Source: an uncultured virus (IMG/VR IMGVR_UViG_2061766007_000563) (lineage: Duplodnaviria > Heunggongvirae > Uroviricota > Caudoviricetes). Taken from it: DNA of 55,963 bases. A program made the position numbers and the translations under genes. Location: the IMG/VR virus record IMGVR_UViG_2061766007_000563, one strand, 5' to 3'. Under the pieces are notes generated by a model, which saw only the letters and a list, made by a program, of their open reading frames with translations, ran no database searches and was not told the origin of the DNA. Positions 7,058 to 53,120 of the stretch are shown one piece after another (position 1 is the first letter of the stretch; every line of letters begins with the position of its first letter).

Positions 7058-10000
7058 ATGAGCGATATTATTAAAGGTCAAAAGTTAAGCAACAGTGACT
7101 CTAAAACATTGAATGAACTTAGAAATGGTTCTAACTCCGATAAGGCGTTTATTCCGGGTATTATTAAAGATGAAGCTAACGTAAAAATCCCGATTGATTC
7201 ATTTATTTTAGATTCATGGAAAGAGTGGTCTGAGCGACATGGCTCTAGTTCAGCCGAAGGGTCTGAGAATTCTTATTATATCGGCAGCGGCAACTATGTA
7301 AAAAATGGCGCTGCATTTGGCGATAATAATTTTATTGACGATTCATATAATATAGGTCAAGGTAATAGTGCTAAAGGTGGTGTTTATGTAATTGGTAATA
7401 ACAATAATGCTAATTATGAAGAAAAATATGACGTTAATGGTAATATTATTGACCCAAATACAAATACTACTATTTTAGGCGATAATAACTATACCGAAAA
7501 CTATATCGGTGAATATAGTGCAATAAGTGCATATAAATATTGGGACAATGGCCAAGAAATTGTAGTAACTGGTTTAGATTATACAGGTAAAACACGTTCA
7601 TTAATTATTGGCAATGATAATTCTGCTATTGGTTGGAATTGTTATTCATTTGGTGAAAAAAATTTTAATGGTTCTACCATTTATGCATATAATAAAGAGA
7701 CATCATCCTATAATACATCAGGTCTTGGATATACAAAAGTAATTGAATATTATGACTGGGAAGAACAAGATTATAAATATAGACTTGAATTTATACCATT
7801 TTTTGATGACCATGGTTATACATTAACATACGGCAATGGTAATAGCGCTACTAGATATTTGGATATGGCAATTGGTATTAATTGCTTTGCGTCTGGCGGT
7901 GAAAATATAGTTATTGGTTCTCCAACAGAGGTACATTGGGATCGTGGAAGTAATAATAAAAGAAAATATACGCCAGAATCTAATGGTTGTAAAAATTTAA
8001 ATATTCGTTCTAAAATTGACGGTGTGTCTAATAAAGCATTTGAATCATATCTTGGGACAAATGCGGCATGTCCAATAGAAGATATACAGGATAATATTTT
8101 AAATTATTCAGATGTTTTAATATCTGGAAATCCTATAACTATATCATTTAAACGGAATAATTTGAATAATGCAAAAAATATAATTTTTAGCGGAGAAAAT
8201 AATCCATCAATACTTATTCATAATAATGAATTAAAATATACTGATTCATTAACTTTTAGTAGTACAGACGCTTCTATAACTGCTGATTCAAATGTATTAA
8301 CTAGAACTACCAGATTAAATATTAATAGTCATATATTTAATAAAAATAACTTTGATGATGTTTGCTATGATAATAATGGTTATATTGTTGCCTATGTATT
8401 TGATGATAATAAGATGTCAAAAATATCTAAATTAAATATAAATGCTGGCAAATTTAATAATAATACTGTTGATAATATAGCAAAGGGACAGAATGAATTT
8501 AATATATATGCACAAAATATTTGTGATTATAATATAATTAAAAATTATAGCAATCTGGGTAACTTAAATATATCAGCTAGGGATATTAGTGAAAATGTTA
8601 TATGTAATACATTGTTACCTACTATAGAATGTAAATCCGGTACTACTTATGGCACATTTGATTTTAATATATTATACAATTTATATAAAGGCTCGAATTG
8701 GACATGGAATATTAAAGGAGACATGTCAAATAATATCATATTAGATTCAAATGAAAATGCTGCTGATGATACGCCAATAGTATTAGAAAATCCGTTATAT
8801 GTGTCGAATAATTTTATTTATCATTCATTATTATCTGCAATGAGCGCGGAAAATAGAGATGATATTATTGCAAGAAATATTATATTAAATGCTTCAGCCA
8901 TAGTAGATTATAATAATTCTGAAGAATTTTCTAATTCCGGTTTCTTTGTCGACAATTTCCTGTTTAACGCCATGTTAGAAAGTGAGCCAGTCTATGACGG
9001 TTTAAACGGACATCAAGTTAATAATGCTACATTAGGTAAAAACGTTATTCTTGGATCTACTGCAAAAAATGTTCAGGGTTCATTTATTGTTTCCGATGGT
9101 GAGAATAATAATCCTATTGAATATTGTAATAGAGTAGTTGCATTTGGCGATCAGACTGTTTTATATACAAATGATAGCACTTATTTTGGAACTGAAAATA
9201 GCGCACATTTTAATGATACATGTTTTGTAGCTGGCGAACATAATGCAATGACTATTGCAGATTATACAGATTCATGGTATGAAGAAAAAACATTGGCTAA
9301 TTGTTCAGAATTTGGTAGATGTTTTATTTTGGGTGTTGGAAATGAATTGGTTAAAGACCAAATAAAAGCTGATCCTGAATATACGCCAAGTAGAAACTAT
9401 TTAATTGGTAACGTAAACAAGATATATGTTTCTGGTAAAAATGTAAACAATAATATTTTATTTGGCGATACTAATATTATTGGTTATTATTATAATGTGT
9501 TTAATGGTGAAGTAATAAGCGAAGTAGGATATACGGAAAATAATGATAGAAATACGTTAATCGGCAGTAATAATAAGATTTCCAAGAATGAAAATGATAA
9601 TATAATTATTGGTGGTTATAATTTAATATTAAATGACAATGATGATATAATTTATTCCAATAATATATTATTTGGTTTGAAAAATATTGCATGTGCTGGT
9701 TCTAACCAAATAAATATTGGTTTGTATAATACGACTTATGGCCATTATTCAACAACTATTGGTAATTACTTGATCGCTGCTGAAAATCAGTATATTGTTG
9801 GTCAGTATAATGAAGAAATGACTGGTTATACCAGGACAGTATCGGCATTTGAAGATGGTGAAATTATTCAAAATCCTATCGAAGGTGTAATATTTGCAAT
9901 CGGTAATGGTAGGCTTAATGCATATGAACTTAATGGAAAGTTTTATAGTGGAGCAAATATCGAAACTGATGAAATTCCAGAAGAATTGTTAAACGATGAT

Positions 10001-42793: not shown

Positions 42794-43991
42794 GATAGTC
42801 TCAAACTTTTCTACTACCTTAAATTTCATTTCTTTTACAATAACATCTAACATTGCTGCTCTATTCAAAGCAGCGAATTGCTGAACAATAGCCATATCGT
42901 GCAGATAACCTTGCATGTGTTCGCCTGTAAGATAGGAAAGATTTTTCGGAACAGAAAAATGGTCATAGTCTTTCATGAGTTCCTTAATTTCAGCATCCGT
43001 CTTTCCTTGATTCTTATACTTAGCAATTTCAGCACCACGAATAGCTGTCAAATTCGCACAATCCTTGATAGCAAGATTTTGCCAGTATTCACAAGTAGCA
43101 ACACCCAAGTGGCGAGAACCAGAATGAATAACAATATAAAATGCACCTTCATCATCCTTATCGCATTCAATGAAGTGGTTACCCCCACCAAGTGAAGCAA
43201 TACTCAAAAGTTCTTCTCGTTTAACATCGGCAATAAGTTCTTCAAACTGTTCATCAAATTCATTAGCATAACGGTGACGGTTACTTCTATGTTCTTTACC
43301 AGACGGAATCTTTTCCTTAATGACCTTATCCAGTTTACCAAATTCGATAAACTTGTCCTTAAGCTTTGCAACCAGCATTCCACAGCCAATATCGACACCA
43401 ACAAGGTTAGGAACAACCTTATCCTTGATAGTCATAGTAGTGCCAACTGTGCAATCTTTACCTGCATGCACATCAGGCATAATGGCAACATTTACATCNN
43501 NNNNNNNNATGGATAACAATATAAAATGCACCTTCATCATCTTTATCGCATTCAATAAAATGATTGCCTCCGCCAAGTGAAGCAATACTTAGAAGTTCTT
43601 CACGTCTTACATCAGCAATAAGTTCTTCAAATTGTTCATCAAATTCATTAGCATAACGGTGACGATTTGCTCTATGTTCCTTACCAGACGGAATCTTTTC
43701 CTTAATGACCTTATCCAGTTTACCAAATTCGATAAACTTGTCCTTAAGCTTTGCAACCAGCATTCCACAGCCAATATCAACACCGACAAGGTTAGGAACA
43801 ACCTTGTTTTTAATAAGCATTGTAGTACCTACTGTACAGTCTTTCCCACAATGACAATCTGGCATTATTTTAATATTAGAATCTTTTGCCCATATTTGAC
43901 AAGTCATATTTAAGATTTGCCCATATGCAGCGCTATCTATATTATCTGTATATACGGTTGCTTTACCATATTTACCTTGTATTTCCATCAT
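42794..43991 (-). CDS. rtcB: RtcB-family RNA ligase (two overlapping haplotype fragments; C-terminus lost at gap)
   Basis: IMPDxHxG, VGVDIGCGM, SLGGGNHFIE, IHSGSRHLG, FAALNR. Confidence 0.95.
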
Positions 43992-44829
43992 CTTTTTTAA
44001 TCCACCTTGGATCTAAAAATCCTTTAACAAAACCTTCTGGACATTCATAACAAAATTTATTAATTTTACCATTATTATACCAATGTCTTCCTTTATTATT
44101 TTCAGCAATTTTTATTTTTCTTTTTTCTTCTATTTCTTCATTAATTTTAACAATATGACCTTCTTTAAATCCTTCAGGACATGTTTCAGCTAATATACTT
44201 ATTTCACCATTATTATACCAATGTTTACCATAATTCCAGCTATCTTCTTTCCGTTTTACTAAATTTGGACACTTTTTATCTTTATTCCATACTTTATATC
44301 CATTTTTATATCTTTCTTTTAATGTTTCAGAAATTTGTTTTCTTTTTTCAGCAGTAACCGGTTTATCTTTAGCCTGTGGTATAATTTTACCTGATTTATA
44401 TCCTTCTTTAAGTGCATTAGAAATTTTTATTCTAGTTTCTTTCGAAAGTTCTTTACCTTTTTGCGCATCTGATAAAGTATTTGCTAATAGTTTTCTTAAT
44501 TGCTCATATGAACGTGCAGACAATTTAATTGGATGCATATCATCACGTTTACGACATAGCCTTAATAAAGCATATGCTGTAGATTTACATGGATATATTT
44601 TAAATAACAATTTATGACATATAAAATGTTCTTTGGCAGTTAATGGAACTAAATTCTTTTTTACTTTTTCAAATTTTGGAAATAATGATTTTGGTAATAT
44701 ATGATGAAATTCAAAATATTCATCTTTAAAATTACGCCTTCTATAATATATGTTTAATGGCCTATTACCAAGTATTTGTTCATTTTTAGCTTTACGTATA
44801 ATTTCCAAATATATATGTTTATAATTCAT
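43972..44829 (-). CDS. HNH homing endonuclease with NUMOD3-like and WYNNG repeats
   Basis: EFHHILPKS..NLVPLTAKEHFICHKLL; LSKETRIKIS; two WYNNG..CPEGF repeats. Confidence 0.88.
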   Translation of the reverse strand: MNYKHIYLEIIRKAKNEQILGNRPLNIYYRRRNFKDEYFEFHHILPKSLFPKFEKVKKNLVPLTAKEHFICHKLLFKIYPCKSTAYALLRLCRKRDDMHPIKLSARSYEQLRKLLANTLSDAQKGKELSKETRIKISNALKEGYKSGKIIPQAKDKPVTAEKRKQISETLKERYKNGYKVWNKDKKCPNLVKRKEDSWNYGKHWYNNGEISILAETCPEGFKEGHIVKINEEIEEKRKIKIAENNKGRHWYNNGKINKFCYECPEGFVKGFLDPRWIKKDDGNTR

Positions 44830-45669: not shown

Positions 45670-46202
45670 TAGTATTCAAGCTCCTCTTTATATCCGGCTA
45701 AAAGTTTTGCACGAACTTCATCAAGAACCTTACCGAGGCGGTTTTCGCCTTTCCAGTTTGTCTCGTCATTAATCAACGGGTCAAATTCACCGAGACCGAC
45801 ACCCCAAATTTTGTCAACCGGGCTAGCTTCGACGAATTTCTTACCTTCAAGGGCAGGATCCGTAATCTTGTCGAACAAAATCTTATTCTGACTATACTTA
45901 CTCAAACATGCGTTGAGCATGATATTGTAAGAAATCTTATTCCATTCGTCCTGATTGAAACCTTCGACCATACGGCCAAGCTTCTTGGCCTTATAGGAAT
46001 CAGCTTCCTTGAAATTAAGAGCTTCAATTTCATTCAGCGTAGCCATATCGTTGAAACAATATGCCTTGTGCCACATATAGCATTGTTCAGAACTGAAAAA
46101 TTCATGAATCTGTCCGTCAAGACACTTAGTCTTCATCGGTGCCCAAGCGAAATTCGATGGCCAGTCGCCCCAAAATAAAATGTGCTTATCTGTAATTGTC
46201 AT
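45669..46202 (-). CDS. NADAR (YbiA/DUF1768) family protein
   Basis: FW..WPSNF, FFSSEQCYMWHKA, KKLGR, KYSQN, VEASPVDKIWGVG, WKGENRLGKVL. Confidence 0.93.
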   Translation of the reverse strand: MTITDKHILFWGDWPSNFAWAPMKTKCLDGQIHEFFSSEQCYMWHKAYCFNDMATLNEIEALNFKEADSYKAKKLGRMVEGFNQDEWNKISYNIMLNACLSKYSQNKILFDKITDPALEGKKFVEASPVDKIWGVGLGEFDPLINDETNWKGENRLGKVLDEVRAKLLAGYKEELEY

Positions 46203-46203
46203 A

Positions 46204-46929
46204 TTAAATAAACCAAATAATTGAAGATTTACCGGATTCTTTAAGTTCAATTTTGTCGTAAACTTTACGTATTCTGGTAATCTGCCAAAGGAATGCATCA
46301 CATGTTTTGGCGTAATCGTTTTCGTCAATTACATTGGTGAATGGAATAGGTGTTTCCTCAGTCAGCTTTACATCTGTAAATTTAGTTTCATCAAGCTTAT
46401 AGTACCAGGCTGGCATTTTCTTCAGAAACTTATTAAATGTAAATTCAGAATCCTTATTATAAAGTTTACTACGCAAATACAAATGCAATTCGACCAAATC
46501 TTCAATAGAAAGAATGAAACCGGTATTATACTGTTTTTCGTTTGAAGCTTTTTCGATTATCTTGCATCCACGTTTCTTAAGGAACTTAACAGCTTCCTTT
46601 CTTAACATAATGCGGGTAAGCTTTACAATATAATGCTCGTTGGCCTTGTTTCCAATGACAGGAGAATCTTCCTTGAATAAAGCCATATCGTTGAGCTTTT
46701 CAAGTGAATTACAATATACTGTCATCGAAAGCTCGTCGTTATACAACTTATCAATCAATGCAAGATAACGTTTAAGCTTTTTGTTTTCGACAATACTATA
46801 GAAATCACTACAGTAAATGCCAGGACCGTCTTCACGAGCCTTATACATTTTTTGATAAACAGAAAACGCCAAAGATTCGCGTTGACATTCATAGGTGCTT
46901 ACTATTCTTGATAGTTCATATTTTGACAT
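46204..46929 (-). CDS. Hypothetical protein (inverted haplotype copy at 47243-47557)
   Basis: 241-aa ORF; near-identical N-terminus on the + strand after a 10-N join. Confidence 0.65.
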   Translation of the reverse strand: MSKYELSRIVSTYECQRESLAFSVYQKMYKAREDGPGIYCSDFYSIVENKKLKRYLALIDKLYNDELSMTVYCNSLEKLNDMALFKEDSPVIGNKANEHYIVKLTRIMLRKEAVKFLKKRGCKIIEKASNEKQYNTGFILSIEDLVELHLYLRSKLYNKDSEFTFNKFLKKMPAWYYKLDETKFTDVKLTEETPIPFTNVIDENDYAKTCDAFLWQITRIRKVYDKIELKESGKSSIIWFI

Positions 46930-47780
46930 NNNNNNNNNNAGTAAATTGTCATATAAGCTTATCTGCCGTGTAGAAAACGGTGGAAAGTATGTTTTATATC
47001 CATTGTCATATAATACTCCAGATTTACACTATCCTTCGGTAACAGAAGTACCAAATTCCCGTACTTGGGTTCTTAAGACTGCTGATACACAGGAACCAAT
47101 TTGGTACGCTGTTATTAATATGAAACGCAACGAAAAAACTATACGAGAACTTTTAAAAATAAAAAATATTGATACTTTCAATAATCATTTATTTGCATTA
47201 AAAGATATTCTCGAATTAAATTGTCTTAAAGGGTGATGACAAATGTCAAAATATGAACTATCAAGAATAGTAAGCACCTATGAATGTCAACGTGAATCTT
47301 TGGCGTTTTATGTCTATCAAAGAATGTATAATGTTCGTGAAGAAGGTTCTGGCATTTACTGTAGTGATTTCTATAGTATTGTCGAAAACAAAAAGCTTAA
47401 ACGTTATCTCGCATTAATTGATAAGATGTATAACGACGAGATTTCGATGACAGTATATTGTAAGTTACTTGAAAAACGTGAAGAGATGCCTTTATTCAAG
47501 GAAGATACTCCTGTCATTGGAAACAAGGCCAACGAGCATTATATTGTAAAGCTTACCNNNNNNNNNNNNNNNNNNNNNNNNNNNNNNNNNNNNNNNNNNN
47601 NNNNNNNNNNNNNNNNNNNNNNNNNNNNNNNNNNNNNNNNNNNNNNNNNNNNNNNNNNNNNNNNNNNNNNNNNNNNNNNNNNNNNNNNNNNNNNNNNNNN
47701 NNNNNNNNNNNNNNNNNNNNNNNNNNNNNNNNNNNNNNNNNNNNNNNNNNNNNNNNNNNNNNNNNNNNNNNNNNNNNNNN

Positions 47781-48561
47781 ACGCTCACGAATATCGGCGC
47801 TAAGTTCCTTGCGTCCTTCAACAGCGGAAGAATGAGAAGCCCAGAACGAAATGAGGATAAGCAGGGTAACGAACGGACCCATGCAGATACCCATAGCGGC
47901 GAGCAAAACATTAATAGCATTATCGAGCTTGACACGCTTAAAGATTACACATGCGTTAAAGATACCGCACAGAATCCAAAGAATTGTACTGATTTCCATA
48001 TTAGTTTTCCTTTTCTGTATTGTTTAACTGTTCAGTTTCTTGAGTATCAACATATTGACACGTAATTCGATTAATCTTGACCTTAGACATAAAATATTCA
48101 GCCATGTCAAGAGTAAATTCTTCATAAACTTTCGGATTGTTATGACAGATAGATTCAAACAGTTCCTTATAGAGCTTCTGAATATCCTTTTCATAAACAT
48201 ATTCTACATTTGTAAGATACTTGATTGTCAGACCAACAGCGTCCTGTAATCTCATATCCGGAAAAGCATCGTTAATGGACGAATAAATCTTAAACAACTT
48301 CTGATGAATGTTGTCCATTTCCTTATATGCCTTTTTAAGGTAATGCTTGAGAGTGAACTTATAATTTACGGGAATGCTCATATTCTTCGTAAATACATAG
48401 CATTCGTAAGTAAGTTCATAATAATTGATACAGAATTTTGCAACCGACTGTTGGTCTACATAGCAGTTAATTTGCTGATATGGCGAATCGACACGTTCCT
48501 CAAAGGTAACGCGATCCTTACCGAAAACATCAGTACAAATCTTTTTAAAGTATGTTGCATT
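47781..48561 (-). other. Two partial hypothetical CDSs (membrane protein from 47999; 48001-48561 lacking its start)
   Basis: ORF track; both truncated by gaps. Confidence 0.5.
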
Positions 48562-48630
48562 NNNNNNNNNNTTGCAAAAAACAACAAAAAACAGGAAAAA
48601 TTTTTTATATATAATATAAAGGTAACGAAA

Positions 48631-48744
48631 ATGACTATGAACGTATTTGAACATGAATTTTTTGCAGCAGAACGTGCCGCAGCTGAATTTGCAGCTGCAG
48701 CGTTTGAAGTATTTGATTCAAATACAGTGCATAGGATCAGGTAG
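48631..48744 (+). CDS. Putative attenuator leader peptide (Phe/Glu/Ala-rich, 37 aa)
   Basis: MTMNVFEHEFFAAERAAAEFAAAAFEVFDSNTVHRIR; TATAAT at 48610 and AAGGT SD upstream. Confidence 0.75.
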   Translation: MTMNVFEHEFFAAERAAAEFAAAAFEVFDSNTVHRIR

Positions 48745-48769
48745 TTAACCGATTAGAGTTTTAAAAACG

Positions 48770-48802
48770 GTTCCTGTGCACAAGCGCAGGAACTTTTCTT
48801 TT
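48770..48802 (+). terminator. Attenuator terminator, mutually exclusive with the antiterminator pairing 48727-48736:48772-48781
   Basis: GTTCCTGTGC-ACAA-GCGCAGGAAC-TTTTCTTTT. Confidence 0.85.
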
Positions 48803-48806
48803 ATAT

Positions 48807-48879
48807 GCCGCTCTAGCAAAGATGGTCTATGCATGGGACTGAAAATCCTGGGATTCCCGATCGTTACGGGAGGGCGGCA
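48807..48879 (+). tRNA. tRNA-Phe(GAA)
   Basis: Cloverleaf GCCGCTC/GGGCGGC, anticodon loop CTGAAAA, atypical T loop ATCGTTA. Confidence 0.85.
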
Positions 48880-48886
48880 CTAATAT

Positions 48887-48959
48887 GGTTCTATCGGCTA
48901 GTGGTCAAGGCCACTTGGTTCTCAGCCAAGTTACTACAGTTCGAATCTGTATAGGACTA
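48887..48959 (+). tRNA. tRNA-Glu(CTC)
   Basis: CTTGG-TTCTCAG-CCAAG anticodon arm; TTCGAAT T loop. Confidence 0.85.
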
Positions 48960-48969
48960 CTAAAATTAT

Positions 48970-49042
48970 GGCGACGTAGAATAACGGCTTAGTTCACGGG
49001 ACCTTCAATCCTGGCATTCGGGTTCGATTCCCGACGCCGCTA
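48970..49042 (+). tRNA. tRNA-Glu(TTC), atypical C33
   Basis: CGGGA-CCTTCAA-TCCTG anticodon arm; TCGGG-TTCGATT-CCCGA T arm. Confidence 0.75.
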
Positions 49043-49051
49043 CTAAAATAT

Positions 49052-49097
49052 GCCGTTCAATCCAAATCTGGTGATTGGACCCGGTTGAAGCCCGGAG
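49052..49097 (+). tRNA. Partial tRNA, probably Phe(GAA), truncated by gap
   Basis: GCCGTTC, D arm TCCA/TGGA, CCGG-TTGAAGC-CCGG. Confidence 0.55.
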
Positions 49098-49686
49098 NNN
49101 NNNNNNNNNNNNNNNNNNNNNNNNNNNNNNNNNNNNNNNNNNNNNNNNNNNNNNNNNNNNNNNNNNNNNNNNNNNNNNNNNNNNNNNNNNNNNNNNNNNN
49201 NNNNNNNNNNNNNNNNNNNNNNNNNNNNNNNNNNNNNNNNNNNNNNNNNNNNNNNNNNNNNNNNNNNNNNNNNNNNNNNNNNNNNNNNNNNNNNNNNNNN
49301 NNNNNNNNNNNNNNNNNNNNNNNNNNNNNNNNNNNNNNNNNNNNNNNNNNNNNNNNNNNNNNNNNNNNNNNNNNNNNNNNNNNNNNNNNNNNNNNNNNNN
49401 NNNNNNNNNNNNNNNNNNNNNNNNNNNNNNNNNNNNNNNNNNNNNNNNNNNNNNNNNNNNNNNNNNNNNNNNNNNNNNNNNNNNNNNNNNNNNNNNNNNN
49501 NNNNNNNNNNNNNNNNNNNNNNNNNNNNNNNNNNNNNNNNNNNNNNNNNNNNNNNNNNNNNNNNNNNNNNNNNNNNNNNNNNNNNNNNNNNNNNNNNNNN
49601 NNNNNNNNNNNNNNNNNNNNNNNNNNNNNNNNNNNNNNNNNNNNNNNNNNNNNNNNNNNNNNNNNNNNNNNNNNNNNNNNNNNNNN

Positions 49687-49756
49687 GGAAATAGGAACGT
49701 TATATGCATTTCTACGAAACGTAAATACCGTTGCTCTACCACTGAGCTACTTCCCC
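49687..49756 (-). ncRNA. tRNA-like RNA 1 (5' half only), anticodon region replaced by motif insert
   Basis: GGGGAAG-TA-GCTCAGTGGTAGAGC then an insert with GCA-TATAAC-GTTCCTAT. Confidence 0.65.
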
Positions 49757-49761
49757 GAGTG

Positions 49762-49828
49762 GTTAACGCGAAATGTATGAACTCATCTAAAAAATAATGC
49801 TTTTGATAGGAACATTCTTTGCGTTAAC
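49762..49828 (-). ncRNA. Leader hairpin carrying the GCA-N6-GTTCCTAT motif (second copy 50006-50072)
   Basis: GTTAACGC/GCGTTAAC closing stem; starts right after the promoter. Confidence 0.6.
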
Positions 49829-49835
49829 GATGTTA

Positions 49836-49864
49836 AATATAGTAAAAAGTTGTTGGTTTGTCAA
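49836..49864 (-). promoter_or_regulatory. Sigma70-like promoter TTGACA-17-TATATT (second copy 50080-50108)
   Basis: Exact 17-nt spacing; the same -10 context recurs upstream of uvsW, DHH, TupA, NUDIX and other genes. Confidence 0.8.
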
Positions 49865-49886
49865 CCCCTTTTTAAAATATTTTTAG

Positions 49887-50001
49887 CCGGCGAGACTGGA
49901 TTCGAACCAATAACCCAAAGTACCCTTTAGATAGGAAGCATTGGTGCTGAAAGCGAATACTAAATCTTAAACTTTTGCTCTACCGATTGAGCTACTCGCC
50001 G
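49887..50001 (-). ncRNA. tRNA-like RNA 2 with a 49-nt insert replacing the anticodon loop
   Basis: Acceptor CGGCGAG/CTCGCCG, D arm GCTC/GAGC, stem AAAGT/ACTTT, T arm ATTGG-TTCGAAT-CCAGT. Confidence 0.75.
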
Positions 50002-50226
50002 AGATGTTAACGCGAAATGTATAAACTGATCGAAAATAATGTTTTTTTGATAGGAACATTCTTTGCGTTAACAGGGTTAAATATAGCAAATTGCTTTATG
50101 TTTGTCAACCTCTTAAAGCAATTATTTTTTCTTGTCAAAGAAANNNNNNNNNNGATAGGAACATTCTTTGCGTTAACAGGATTAAATATAGTAAATTACT
50201 TTATGTTTGTCAACCTCTTAAAGCAA

Positions 50227-50745
50227 TTATTTTTTCTTGTCAAAGAAAGAATAGATAGTGATTAAACTATGAAAATCTTCTTTAAATTGGTCAAGCTTAA
50301 GTTCTTGACCTTCTTGTTTAAGGGATTCAATAAAAGAATGACAATTATAACAAAATTTATTATCGTCAAATACTTTTATATTAGCAATAATATTATCAAC
50401 TGAAATGTCCTTATTATATTTTATTTTAAGGAACATTTGAATCATTGTTGCAAGTTCTTTAGTCTTTTCCATTGATGTCTTCCACGTCTCGTATCATATC
50501 TCTTTCCGGACTTTCTGAATTTTTATCCAAATAACGACCAGTAAGAATCATAGTATCATGGTCGGTAAATTCAAGATTTGGTTTACCTTCGGCCATATTC
50601 TCATAGTCCTCAGTAACAAGGTCTCTCCAAGAAGTATAACCAATTTGGTCCCAATTCCTATCGAAGAACTGGACTGTATTAGTTCCAACTTCCTTAGCGA
50701 CCACAGCACCGAACATTCCATCCTTTCGCATTATGGATAAACCAG
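50227..50745 (-). other. Small hypothetical CDSs (50227-50472; 50459-50745 partial)
   Basis: ORF track. Confidence 0.5.
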
Positions 50746-50756
50746 ANNNNNNNNNN

Positions 50757-51447
50757 ATAAAAGATCTCCATACGTATCAGAACTCATGGTATAACTTCCG
50801 CAACTGAATGCGTCGTTAATCTCGATAAGTGCTATCTCTCCGGTATCGAGAACACCGACATCCAAGCAATAGGCCTTGGGAGAATCGGTCCAGTCCTTAA
50901 CCATGGCGTCAACAGTGGCTTTGTCAATCATTATATTATTATCGCCAGAATAATATGCATAATCCCTGGCAACGCCGTTAACGACTGGAACACGATACTC
51001 AGATACGAACCTAACCGGCTCAGAGCAGATAATCTGAGTCCCGTCGGCAGCTCCCTCGGTCAAAAGCCACTCGTCCCTGGATTTCAAGACGAAACCGGTA
51101 AACCTCTTCAGCTTATCCTTCGGCTTGATGAAAACAGGATCCAAAAGATAATCGTTGAAAACCTTATCCTTCATATATCCGAGCTTTGTCTCCCAGATAC
51201 GACGATGAAGATACTTGTTCAACTGAACTGGATAATCCTCATGATGATAATCAATTTTCAACTTCTTAATGGCATTGAACATTACAGGAATCTCGCCAGC
51301 GATGAAATCGTCAGAAGTAAGCTTAAACCGGTTCTGAAGAAGATGTTTCTTGTAGAACGTAGTATAATTACCCTCGCCGAAGTAATCGGCGAGTTTACGC
51401 TCATCGCTTCCGAGCTTTCCCTTATCATTTAACTGCAAATAGTTCAT
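50757..51447 (-). CDS. ATP-grasp domain protein (DUF4343/R2K-like), 3' end lost at gap
   Basis: DYP..L.KYLHRRIW, VFIKP..KRFTG, SEYR, YCLDVG..LIEINDAFS. Confidence 0.85.
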
Positions 51448-53120
51448 TCTGCCTTTACATGTTTGAATCCCAAATTCATTGCTTCGGCTACGGTGATTTC
51501 GTCACCGGCCTTATAGGTTTTTCCGGTCTTTTCCTGAGGCTCGCCAGATTTGAACGTGGAAGCTGGAACAGGATTTCCCGGATGGAAAGTATACATTACG
51601 TCACCGATACCGTCTTCAGGTCCGATAATAAGAATAGTGAAGTCAACATCCTGACGCTTGTCGGTCTTCATACAGAGCGAAAGGAAACCGGTATTCTTAG
51701 GGTCACGGAAATGACATACTGCATCCTTATCGAAATCAGAAAGGTTCAGCATACCGTGATGTCCAGGAATATCAGTAGTGATTACCGCACTGCAACCCGG
51801 AGTGAGCACGCCAGTAGAATCTATCCACGGTGACCAATTCGCGCTCATCAGGGCCTTTTCCATGTCTTCGACTGACGTGTAGTCGGTCGTGGAACCGAGG
51901 CCGTTAGAGAGCCTTTGCTTCAGACATGAATTAAAGTAGTCCGGAAGCTTTTCCTTAGTCTTCTGGATAATATCATAGATTTGTTTGTTAAAGTAATTCA
52001 TACGTGAAACTTCTTCCATGCACTTGGATGTTTTTCGATTTGTTGAATAAGAAAACCGATATACTCGGCAACAGCATTCGAACGACTACCTGAATAATTC
52101 ATAATCACTTTATTATCAGGATTCATCAGTTCGGAAAGAATATTCATAGCTTCTTCGTCAGTCAAAGCCGGGAACATATTCTTGTCATTGTCAAATAGCA
52201 ACTTGAATTTTTCCTTACAAGCCTTGGCGGTCTCACGAACATGCTTTCGCTCTTCAAGCTTCTTGGCTACGACTATCGCGATACCAACGCCAGCCGCGAA
52301 ACCAAACAGGATAATGGCAATTTCAAGCAACCATTCAAGAGTAAATGTTAACATCTAGGAATATCCTTTTCACCCTGTAAACGTTGTTTTTCCTTTTCGA
52401 CTTCCTGCTTGAACGCCGGAGAATTAGAAATCATTTCGGCCTGCTTTGCAAGATCGAGCAAGTTTCCGAAAAGCATGTTTACCATCATTTTTTCTTCAAT
52501 AGAATCCGTATTGTCACGGAGGAGTTCAAGTCGCTTGGCTGTAGCTTTAAGTTCATCAATAGCAATCATTTTTAACCCAACAAGTTAAGTTTTTCAAGGA
52601 GACAGAGACGCGCTTCTTCACGAATTTCCTGAAGTTGTATTTCGTCAAGAATCTTCGGATTTTCATTCTTTTCACTGATAGTCATACGTTCCATAGAACA
52701 GATATGCTTTCCGTTTTCAGAAACGTCGATAGCCGTATAGCCGGACTGTTTCGGCATATTCAAACGGATATTACAGTCAATAGATACTTCAATTTCGTAC
52801 TTTACTGCGTCATCCTGATGATAGACATTCTTTACTTCCCTGATTTTTACAAGTCTGTAACCGGTATCACCTTCATAAGAATAACGGTCAGAGCCGTGGA
52901 GCTTTACCCACTTTCCTTCGTACTTATCCTTATACTTCTGGATAACCTTTTCGTAATATTCTTTGTTTTCGAGTTCTTTGAGCTTGGCGTTGCACTGGTC
53001 AAGCAAGGCACGAATCTGCTTAGCGTTCATACCGCTGACGTCGATGACTTTGAGGTCAGTATTAATCTTATGCTTCATAGCGAGGACTTTGGTGTCCGTT
53101 GTTTTAATCTTATTCTTCAT
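51444..53120 (-). other. Four hypothetical CDSs (51444-~52001, 51998-52354, 52348-52569, 52572-53120)
   Basis: Overlapping or abutting co-oriented ORFs behind a TTTACA..TATATT promoter near 53125-53155. Confidence 0.6.

Follow-up and report, generated by a model that had tools for sequence, protein, structure and literature searches.

We analysed a stretch of 55,963 nucleotides (the window) from an uncultured virus of the Caudoviricetes, IMG/VR record IMGVR_UViG_2061766007_000563, and concentrate here on a module in which a short open reading frame (ORF), the leader, is followed by an intrinsic terminator and a row of transfer RNA (tRNA) genes. The phage is very large and its clade is one of gut phages of about 400 kb. 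An initial annotation, made from the sequence alone, had read the module as a transcription attenuator in which the ribosome translating the leader decides whether the tRNA genes are transcribed. The module has the following features, with positions counted from the first letter of the window.

48563-48572, no strand: run of 10 N, sitting where the relatives G004 and G006 have the -10 hexamer of the module promoter
48573-48630, plus strand: A/T-rich 5' region common to the paralogous modules
48606-48616, plus strand: 11-nt AT box, one exact match within the window
48618-48622, plus strand: Shine-Dalgarno-like AAAGG, 8 nt 5' of the ATG at 48631
48631-48744, plus strand: leader ORF, 37 codons plus TAG
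48646-48714, plus strand: sensing zone, codons 6-28, with 6 TTT, 5 GAA and 9 GCN
48727-48751, plus strand: putative antiterminator 5' strands, 48727-48736 (codons 33-36) and 48748-48751, which a ribosome on the stop codon would cover
48769-48804, plus strand: intrinsic terminator and T tract, with an 11-bp stem and the loop ACAA; its 5' arm (with 48768) is the putative antiterminator 3' strand
48807-48880, plus strand: tRNA-Phe (GAA), from ARAGORN and Rfam, starting about 3 nt past the T tract
48887-48960, plus strand: tRNA-Glu (CTC), from ARAGORN and Rfam
48970-49043, plus strand: tRNA-Glu (TTC), from ARAGORN and Rfam
49051-49097, plus strand: 5' portion of one more tRNA-like gene, its anticodon loop containing GAA, recognised by eye and truncated by the N run 49098-49686

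Translation of the leader ORF gives MTMNVFEHEFFAAERAAAEFAAAAFEVFDSNTVHRIR and then the TAG stop, as annotated, and its sensing zone holds the 6 Phe, 5 Glu and 9 Ala codons that had been counted there, all Phe codons being TTT and all Glu codons GAA. Together these three amino acids account for 20 of the 36 codons after the start, compared with a background of 16.3% in 7061 codons from 14 long window ORFs (binomial P ~8e-8). The leader lies upstream of the tRNA genes on the same strand, and its start codon and ribosome-binding context are kept in relatives and paralogs. The strong intrinsic terminator is likewise present (48769-48794, 11 pairs of which 6 are G-C, a 4-nt loop and the tail TTTCTTTTAT); this motif occurs once in the window where 0.02 occurrences are expected, and it stands between leader and tRNA genes with no promoter in between. 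ARAGORN calls tRNA-Phe, tRNA-Glu(CTC) and tRNA-Glu(TTC) downstream, in agreement with both the annotation and Rfam, and as the visible tRNA genes are spaced by 6-9 nt there is no space for an internal promoter in the visible array. A probable second tRNA-Phe had also been annotated, of which the tRNA-like fragment with its GAA anticodon loop could be recovered; neither ARAGORN nor Rfam calls it, and it found no match in the related records G002, G004 and G006. All of 49098-49686 is N, and it was there that a tRNA-Ala gene had been predicted; tRNA-Ala genes do follow this leader in G002, G004, G006 and the record of locus L063, the four related records with arrays that were read.

The module is present at about 96% DNA identity in four of four related IMG/VR records, namely G004 (411 kb, 98% complete), G005 (291 kb), G003 (90 kb) and G002 (12 kb), and the pair of tRNA-Glu genes in the window is 98% identical to G004:150347-150523. 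A more diverged copy with a changed leader tail is found in G006, a 424-kb record with terminal repeats. Substitutions in the sensing zone between relatives are synonymous or exchange Val and Ala. Four relatives each carry the A/T-rich 5' region at two sites.

Both G004 and G006 carry six paralogous promoter-leader-terminator modules, one before every large tRNA array. By a count of coordinates, 46 of the 53 Rfam tRNA matches in G004 lie within its six arrays. The G004 modules begin with a near-consensus promoter (TTGACA or TTTACA, 17 nt, TATATT) and the A/T-rich 5' region containing the 11-nt AT box and AAAGG. The short ORF follows, then a terminator 24-35 nt past the leader stop codon, and the tRNA genes come last. 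A seventh G004 module precedes a gene for alanyl-tRNA synthetase (AlaRS, gene alaS), and the AT box lies 5' of all seven. Leaders and downstream genes in G004 are as follows.

Leader MTMNVFEHEFFAAERAAAEFAAAAFEAFDSNTVHRIR: array Glu, Ala, Glu, Ala, Ala, Phe, Glu, Glu, Ala
Leader MTKFVVDTHDCKTRRDGRGFGKHDKDRHKHRVI: array Asp, Asp, Lys(CTT) x2, Gly x3, His
Leader MLRFVKQVKQIRKQQVAVCFAMGSE: array Gln(CTG), Lys(TTT), Arg(TCT), Gln(TTG)
Leader MTFTMNTNTVNPNNPEVLQD: array Asn, Pro, Thr, Asn, Pro, Thr, Met, Val
Leader MKTLSLTLLLLSSLLLSWLLRRSLVGTK: array Trp, Leu x5, Ser(GCT)
Leader rich in Tyr, Cys, Ser, Met and Ile: array Tyr x2, Cys, Met, Ser(GGA, TGA, CGA)
Leader MTMNILNTRIFAAAAYIMT, with four consecutive Ala codons: before the alanyl-tRNA synthetase gene (L013 345-404, 488-1825; G004:147344-148824)

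The AlaRS encoded there has 445 aa and the catalytic domain only (PF01411, E 1e-183); the terminator before it is of the same type, and the segment is absent from the window. A scan of the whole G004 record returned 405 terminator-like hairpins and 75 loose candidates for a short ORF followed by a terminator, most of them noise. Only 6 of the 75 have a tRNA within 200 nt downstream, and these are the six array leaders; for the Tyr/Cys module the scan took another frame because of an in-frame stop. The AT box is found in 8 of the 75. Seven of these are the leaders of the arrays and of alaS; the eighth is a Ser-rich short ORF (G004:110480-110551), in which a run of Ser codons is followed by a terminator and then an unknown ORF of 106 aa, and which may be another leader of the same design. 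We also tried the AT-box pattern as a probe of viral contigs and obtained at least 125 stretches; among the 80 examined, 10 had tRNAs and the relatives accounted for 5 loci in 3 records. The box is unfit as a specific probe because it is too AT-rich.

A check set beforehand was to ask whether the codons of the leaders follow the identities of the tRNAs in related phages, and in both G004 and G006 they do. The match was scored by standard wobble rules counting only tRNAs named by ARAGORN, and for G006 it was assumed that the last array continues across the record ends. In G004, 91 of 167 leader codons (168 in the frame comparison) are read by tRNAs of their own array, compared with a mean of 13.8 and a maximum of 25 in the fully mismatched leader-array pairings (n=265), and the true assignment alone of 720 permutations reaches 91. 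The result for G006 is 94 of 160 codons, with a mismatched mean of 15, a maximum of 21 and again one permutation in 720. Shifting the leaders to the +1 frame reduces the match to 17/162 in G004 and 16/154 in G006, the +2 frame gives 24/162 and 26/154, and the reverse complement 14/168 and 19/160. The signal is thus confined to the ORF's own frame.

The match extends to the choice among synonymous codons. Lysine is encoded by AAG before Lys(CTT) in 5 of 5 cases and by AAA before Lys(TTT) in 3 of 3; serine codons are AGY before Ser(GCT) (5/5) and TCN before Ser(GGA/TGA/CGA) (5/5 in G004, 7/7 in G006), isoleucine codons are ATA before Ile(TAT) (3/3) and arginine codons AGR before Arg(TCT), against a background usage of 46% AAG, 41.5% AGY, 41% CAG and 30% ATA. 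An unusual tRNA (L013 9175-9254), its D arm reduced and its variable region long, is given the anticodon ACG (Arg) by Infernal alignment, which fits the CGC, CGC, CGA and CGA codons of the Asp/Lys/Gly/His leader and would lift its match from 17 to 21 of 32. A tRNA-like element near it (L013 9465-9558) has only a weak tmRNA-like match, below the gathering score.

The two genomes also differ in the location of one tRNA gene, as tRNA-Gln(CTG) belongs to the Gln/Lys/Arg array in G004 and stands at the end of the Tyr/Cys/Met/Ile/Ser array in G006. Two CAG codons occur in the Gln/Lys/Arg leader of G004 and three in the Tyr/Cys leader of G006, the Arg/Gln/Lys leader of G006 having CAA only, and from this comparison the CAG codons appear to have been relocated together with the tRNA gene. 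The Asn/Pro/Thr/Val leaders (MTFTMNTNTVNPNNPEVLQD in G004 and MQLVVTTNVTPVNNPKVTFD in G006) differ in sequence and keep their composition.

A check for covariation of the stems had been proposed too. We found that the stretch around the stop codon changes along with the terminator stems, which differ between modules, and that it pairs best with its own terminator. Duplex energies were used for this, because a MAFFT alignment of eight module tails brought the terminators into register and not the antiterminator strands; in G004 we took the 21 nt upstream and 16 nt downstream of the stop codon's end and paired this zone with the 5' arm of the terminator. Over the seven G004 modules the cognate sum is -94.1 kcal/mol compared with a mean of -60.6 over 5040 reassignments (1/5040), and in G006 it is -71.3 compared with -46.9 kcal/mol (1/720). 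In most modules the paired strand falls between -18 and +7 nt relative to the end of the stop codon, inside the footprint of a ribosome on that codon.

In the window itself, 48727-48736 pairs with 48772-48781 over 10 bp including one G.U, exactly as the initial annotation had it, and the pairing is lengthened by four more base pairs between 48748-48751 and 48768-48771. Measured from the end of the stop codon, the antiterminator strand here occupies positions 17 to 8 nt upstream. Folded without the 3' arm of the terminator the alternative hairpin has -18.3 kcal/mol, compared with -18.4 for the terminator alone, and the two are mutually exclusive, both using the terminator 5' arm. As they are nearly equal and equilibrium folds always favour the terminator form (-22.7 kcal/mol), any switch must be kinetic, settled by whichever structure arises first. 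When nascent RNA still lacking the 3' arm was folded, the window and most modules behaved alike: the 5' arm paired with the stop-codon zone if no ribosome was present or one was stalled in mid-leader, and did not once a ribosome (assumed footprint from 15 nt before to 12 nt after the first A-site base) occupied the stop codon. The leader also folds as a long hairpin (about 48633-48735, z -4.4), and nascent folds without a ribosome still give the antiterminator.

From these comparisons we consider it quite probable that the window module is a ribosome-mediated (leader-peptide) transcription attenuator gating a phage tRNA array, and that it is one of a family of such modules in this clade. The attenuator reading of the initial annotation thus gains the backing of two diverged relatives, both in the match of codons to tRNAs and in the pairing of each leader with its own terminator. 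Transcription would enter the short leader, whose codons 6-28 are nearly all TTT, GAA or GCN. If these are decoded fast, the ribosome would reach codons 33-37 and the TAG and cover 48727-48751, so that the terminator 48769-48794 could form and the transcript would end before the tRNA genes. If tRNAs for Phe, Glu or Ala are scarce, uncharged or damaged, decoding would be slow and the ribosome would lag in the sensing zone, leaving 48727-48736 free to pair with the terminator 5' arm once it is made. RNA polymerase would then continue into tRNA-Phe, tRNA-Glu and, in the relatives, tRNA-Ala. New tRNAs should quicken the decoding of the leader and shut the switch, a negative feedback on decoding capacity for each group of codons; as the leader is decoded by the very tRNAs that it would control, the loop would sense its own product. 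Translation of the leader, the direction and size of the response and its physiological trigger, for which the initial annotation had suggested host anticodon nucleases or starvation, are what we infer. We lean slightly towards a wider picture in which the arrays and AlaRS, each behind a leader of its own codons, form a genome-wide and anticodon-resolved sensor network by which only missing tRNAs would be replenished, for example after host shut-off or the action of anticodon nucleases, which would make the ribosome itself the homeostatic controller of tRNA supply.

One rival to attenuation is a constitutively leaky terminator, or an RNA-processing hairpin, behind an unrelated small ORF, with the tRNAs coming from unregulated read-through. 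The dominance of the terminator in every equilibrium fold would agree with it, and so would the window pairing, which taken alone is marginal (18 of 300 shuffles do as well), and two of the six G006 modules, Arg/Gln/Lys/Met/Ile and Asn/Pro/Thr/Met/Val, which have no convincing antiterminator (-5.1 and -6.5 kcal/mol). RNA libraries could be cited on its side as well. Of the 24 runs listed, 6 are RNA runs holding part of the stretch, and in four RNA runs from four studies contigs span the leader, in three of the four crossing the terminator into the tRNAs; these contigs give neither ends, strand nor level, DNA carry-over is possible, contig stops are accounted for by strain branching, and the data are uninformative on termination. 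What a leaky terminator leaves unexplained are the in-frame codons for their own arrays in 12 leaders of two genomes, the synonymous choice that follows the anticodons, the relocation of CAG with tRNA-Gln(CTG) and the cognate antiterminator match, and we regard it as improbable. T-box elements control tRNA-related genes, and many triplets of the leader are complementary to anticodons of the tRNAs encoded after it, so one could imagine direct sensing in which leader codons pair with the anticodons of free tRNAs and shift the balance between terminator and antiterminator without translation. The match, limited to one frame that runs from a conserved ATG behind AAAGG to a stop 24-35 nt before the terminator, speaks against such sensing, as do the missing Rfam T-box match and the absence of a specifier loop or T-box sequence architecture, which makes it very unlikely. 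Still less credit can be given to the idea that the short ORFs are functional micro-proteins whose composition is selected for the peptide. The ORFs are conserved, and a Phe/Glu/Ala peptide could form an amphipathic helix; the peptides of the seven modules nevertheless share no sequence past the first residues, their compositions differ exactly as the arrays differ, the orthologous Asn/Pro/Thr/Val leaders keep composition and not sequence, and a synonymous choice following the anticodons is invisible to peptide function.

The folding results listed for the leaky terminator weigh against attenuation too, and further points have to be put on the same side. The antiterminator pairing of the G004 alaS module is weak (-6.6 kcal/mol). 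There is no clear anti-antiterminator (1:2 hairpin), and since the antiterminator forms even without a ribosome in nascent folds, an untranslated leader may allow read-through and in this differ from the classical trp attenuator. The window shows no promoter, its expected place being occupied by the N run 48563-48572. The Tyr/Cys/Met/Ser leader of G004 and G005, which are identical there, has an in-frame TAA at codon 9 (L016 2300-2395; G005:215150-215360), and its G006 counterpart is an open frame of 30 codons; the TAA may be read through, may shorten the leader or may mark a switch that has decayed. Some arrays of the relatives contain homing-endonuclease ORFs and promoter-like sites that could circumvent the switch, several of the tRNA-like array genes have no assigned identity, and all modules are paralogs of one phage clade and not independent origins. 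Finally, the left neighbour gene in the window is 96% identical to a G004 protein, yet it is not the neighbour that the module has in G004. This and other differences in gene order from G004, such as the segment right of the large N run, which is inverted relative to G004 and lacks alaS, could be real rearrangements or scaffold joins.

Some observations on these genomes may be recorded here. HNH/homing-endonuclease-like ORFs, with promoter-like sites 5' of them, interrupt tRNA arrays of the relatives at L013 ~8322-9087, L014 11509-12279 and L001 3509-4492, and the window has a homing-endonuclease-like gene of PHROG 655 at 43975-44829 on the minus strand. In the Phe/Glu/Ala array, ARAGORN gives a tRNA-like gene (L013 3070-3142) the two-letter anticodon 'ga'; by eye its anticodon loop seems to have one base in excess, with GAA in it. 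To the right of the large N run, the window carries two tRNA genes on the minus strand (49887-50001 and 49692-49756) that have about 40 nt inserted into the anticodon loop or next to it. The former scores 53.3 bits in Rfam and the latter is truncated by the N run. A promoter of its own, with 11 of 12 consensus positions, precedes each, and neither has a leader ORF (promoters at 49864-49836, 50108-50080 and 50213-50185). The intron mode of ARAGORN gave doubtful identities for such insert-bearing tRNAs; it also gave a weak 'tta' suppressor call, and was not relied on. Two paralogous ORFs lie head-to-head at 46204-46929 (minus strand) and 47243-47803 (plus strand), sharing the same N-terminal sequence as an inverted duplication and matching no family. 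Most large window proteins match no PHROG family; one of the large proteins is an NrdD-like anaerobic ribonucleotide reductase. Many further short N runs interrupt the window.

The sequencing runs that hold the stretch are mostly labelled as metagenomes of ruminant or other animal guts. The nearest available record, G001, gave no match to the locus. Among GenBank phages the window module matches only tRNA-Phe pieces of 36-41 nt in four crAss-like records (two phages with two accessions each), and a 1040-aa window protein and the G004 module are without match; from this lack of matches we conclude that no GenBank phage is related.

To our knowledge, the control of tRNA gene expression in phages is largely unknown, though many phages carry tRNA genes. 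If our reading is true, ribosome-mediated attenuation regulates tRNA genes themselves, the operon product being the sensed molecule, and phages would be able to correct, on their own, the supply of precisely the tRNAs whose codons are being decoded slowly. The modules would then be natural, modular and codon-specific sensors of decoding speed (Lys AAA/AAG, Ser AGY/TCN, Arg CGN/AGR) that, if they work in this way, might be reused as reporters of tRNA availability. In the parts of the literature available to us, no description of leader-peptide attenuation of tRNA genes was found for any organism, and an early proposal for bacterial tRNA-Phe genes is possible. PMC3082878 reports a 6- to 7-fold de-repression of the pheA attenuator when one of two tRNA-Phe genes is lost, and on that account leader attenuators can be sensitive to the dosage of tRNA. 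Why a phage might sense decoding capacity is made plausible by PMC12409363, in which phage-encoded tRNA sets counter host defence that targets tRNAs, the phage tRNAs replacing those of the host; that study concerns the presence of tRNAs and not their regulation.

Searches with cmscan gave no match to the Rfam leader families (Trp, His, Leu, Thr, Phe) or the T-box in window 46000-52000 (E<=1) and L013 (E<=0.1); they returned tRNA matches, one tmRNA-like match below gathering in L013, and matches at chance level. Leader-peptide attenuators are known for trp, his, leu, pheA and pheST, together with the multivalent thr and ilv leaders. The phage modules resemble the enterobacterial amino-acid attenuators in having a short leader with regulatory codons, presumably translated, a terminator, a mutually exclusive antiterminator and the position of the ribosome as the likely signal, and as in the thr and ilv leaders one leader would sense several amino acids. 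The enterobacterial attenuators regulate biosynthetic enzymes, whereas the window module appears to target tRNA genes, so that the sensed molecule would be the product; moreover, the phage modules tune their codons to particular anticodons, with one module per tRNA array, have no clear 1:2 hairpin and show no sequence relationship to them. In the pheST attenuator of E. coli a Phe-rich leader controls phenylalanyl-tRNA synthetase, a gene of the translation apparatus, and the Ala-run leader before AlaRS in the relatives would follow the same logic; it differs in concerning Ala and a truncated phage enzyme of 445 aa, and the window module would control tRNAs instead. T-box riboswitches, finally, also make terminator read-through upstream of translation-related genes depend on the state of tRNA, but they bind uncharged tRNA directly and need no translation, whereas the signal in the phage modules is frame-specific.

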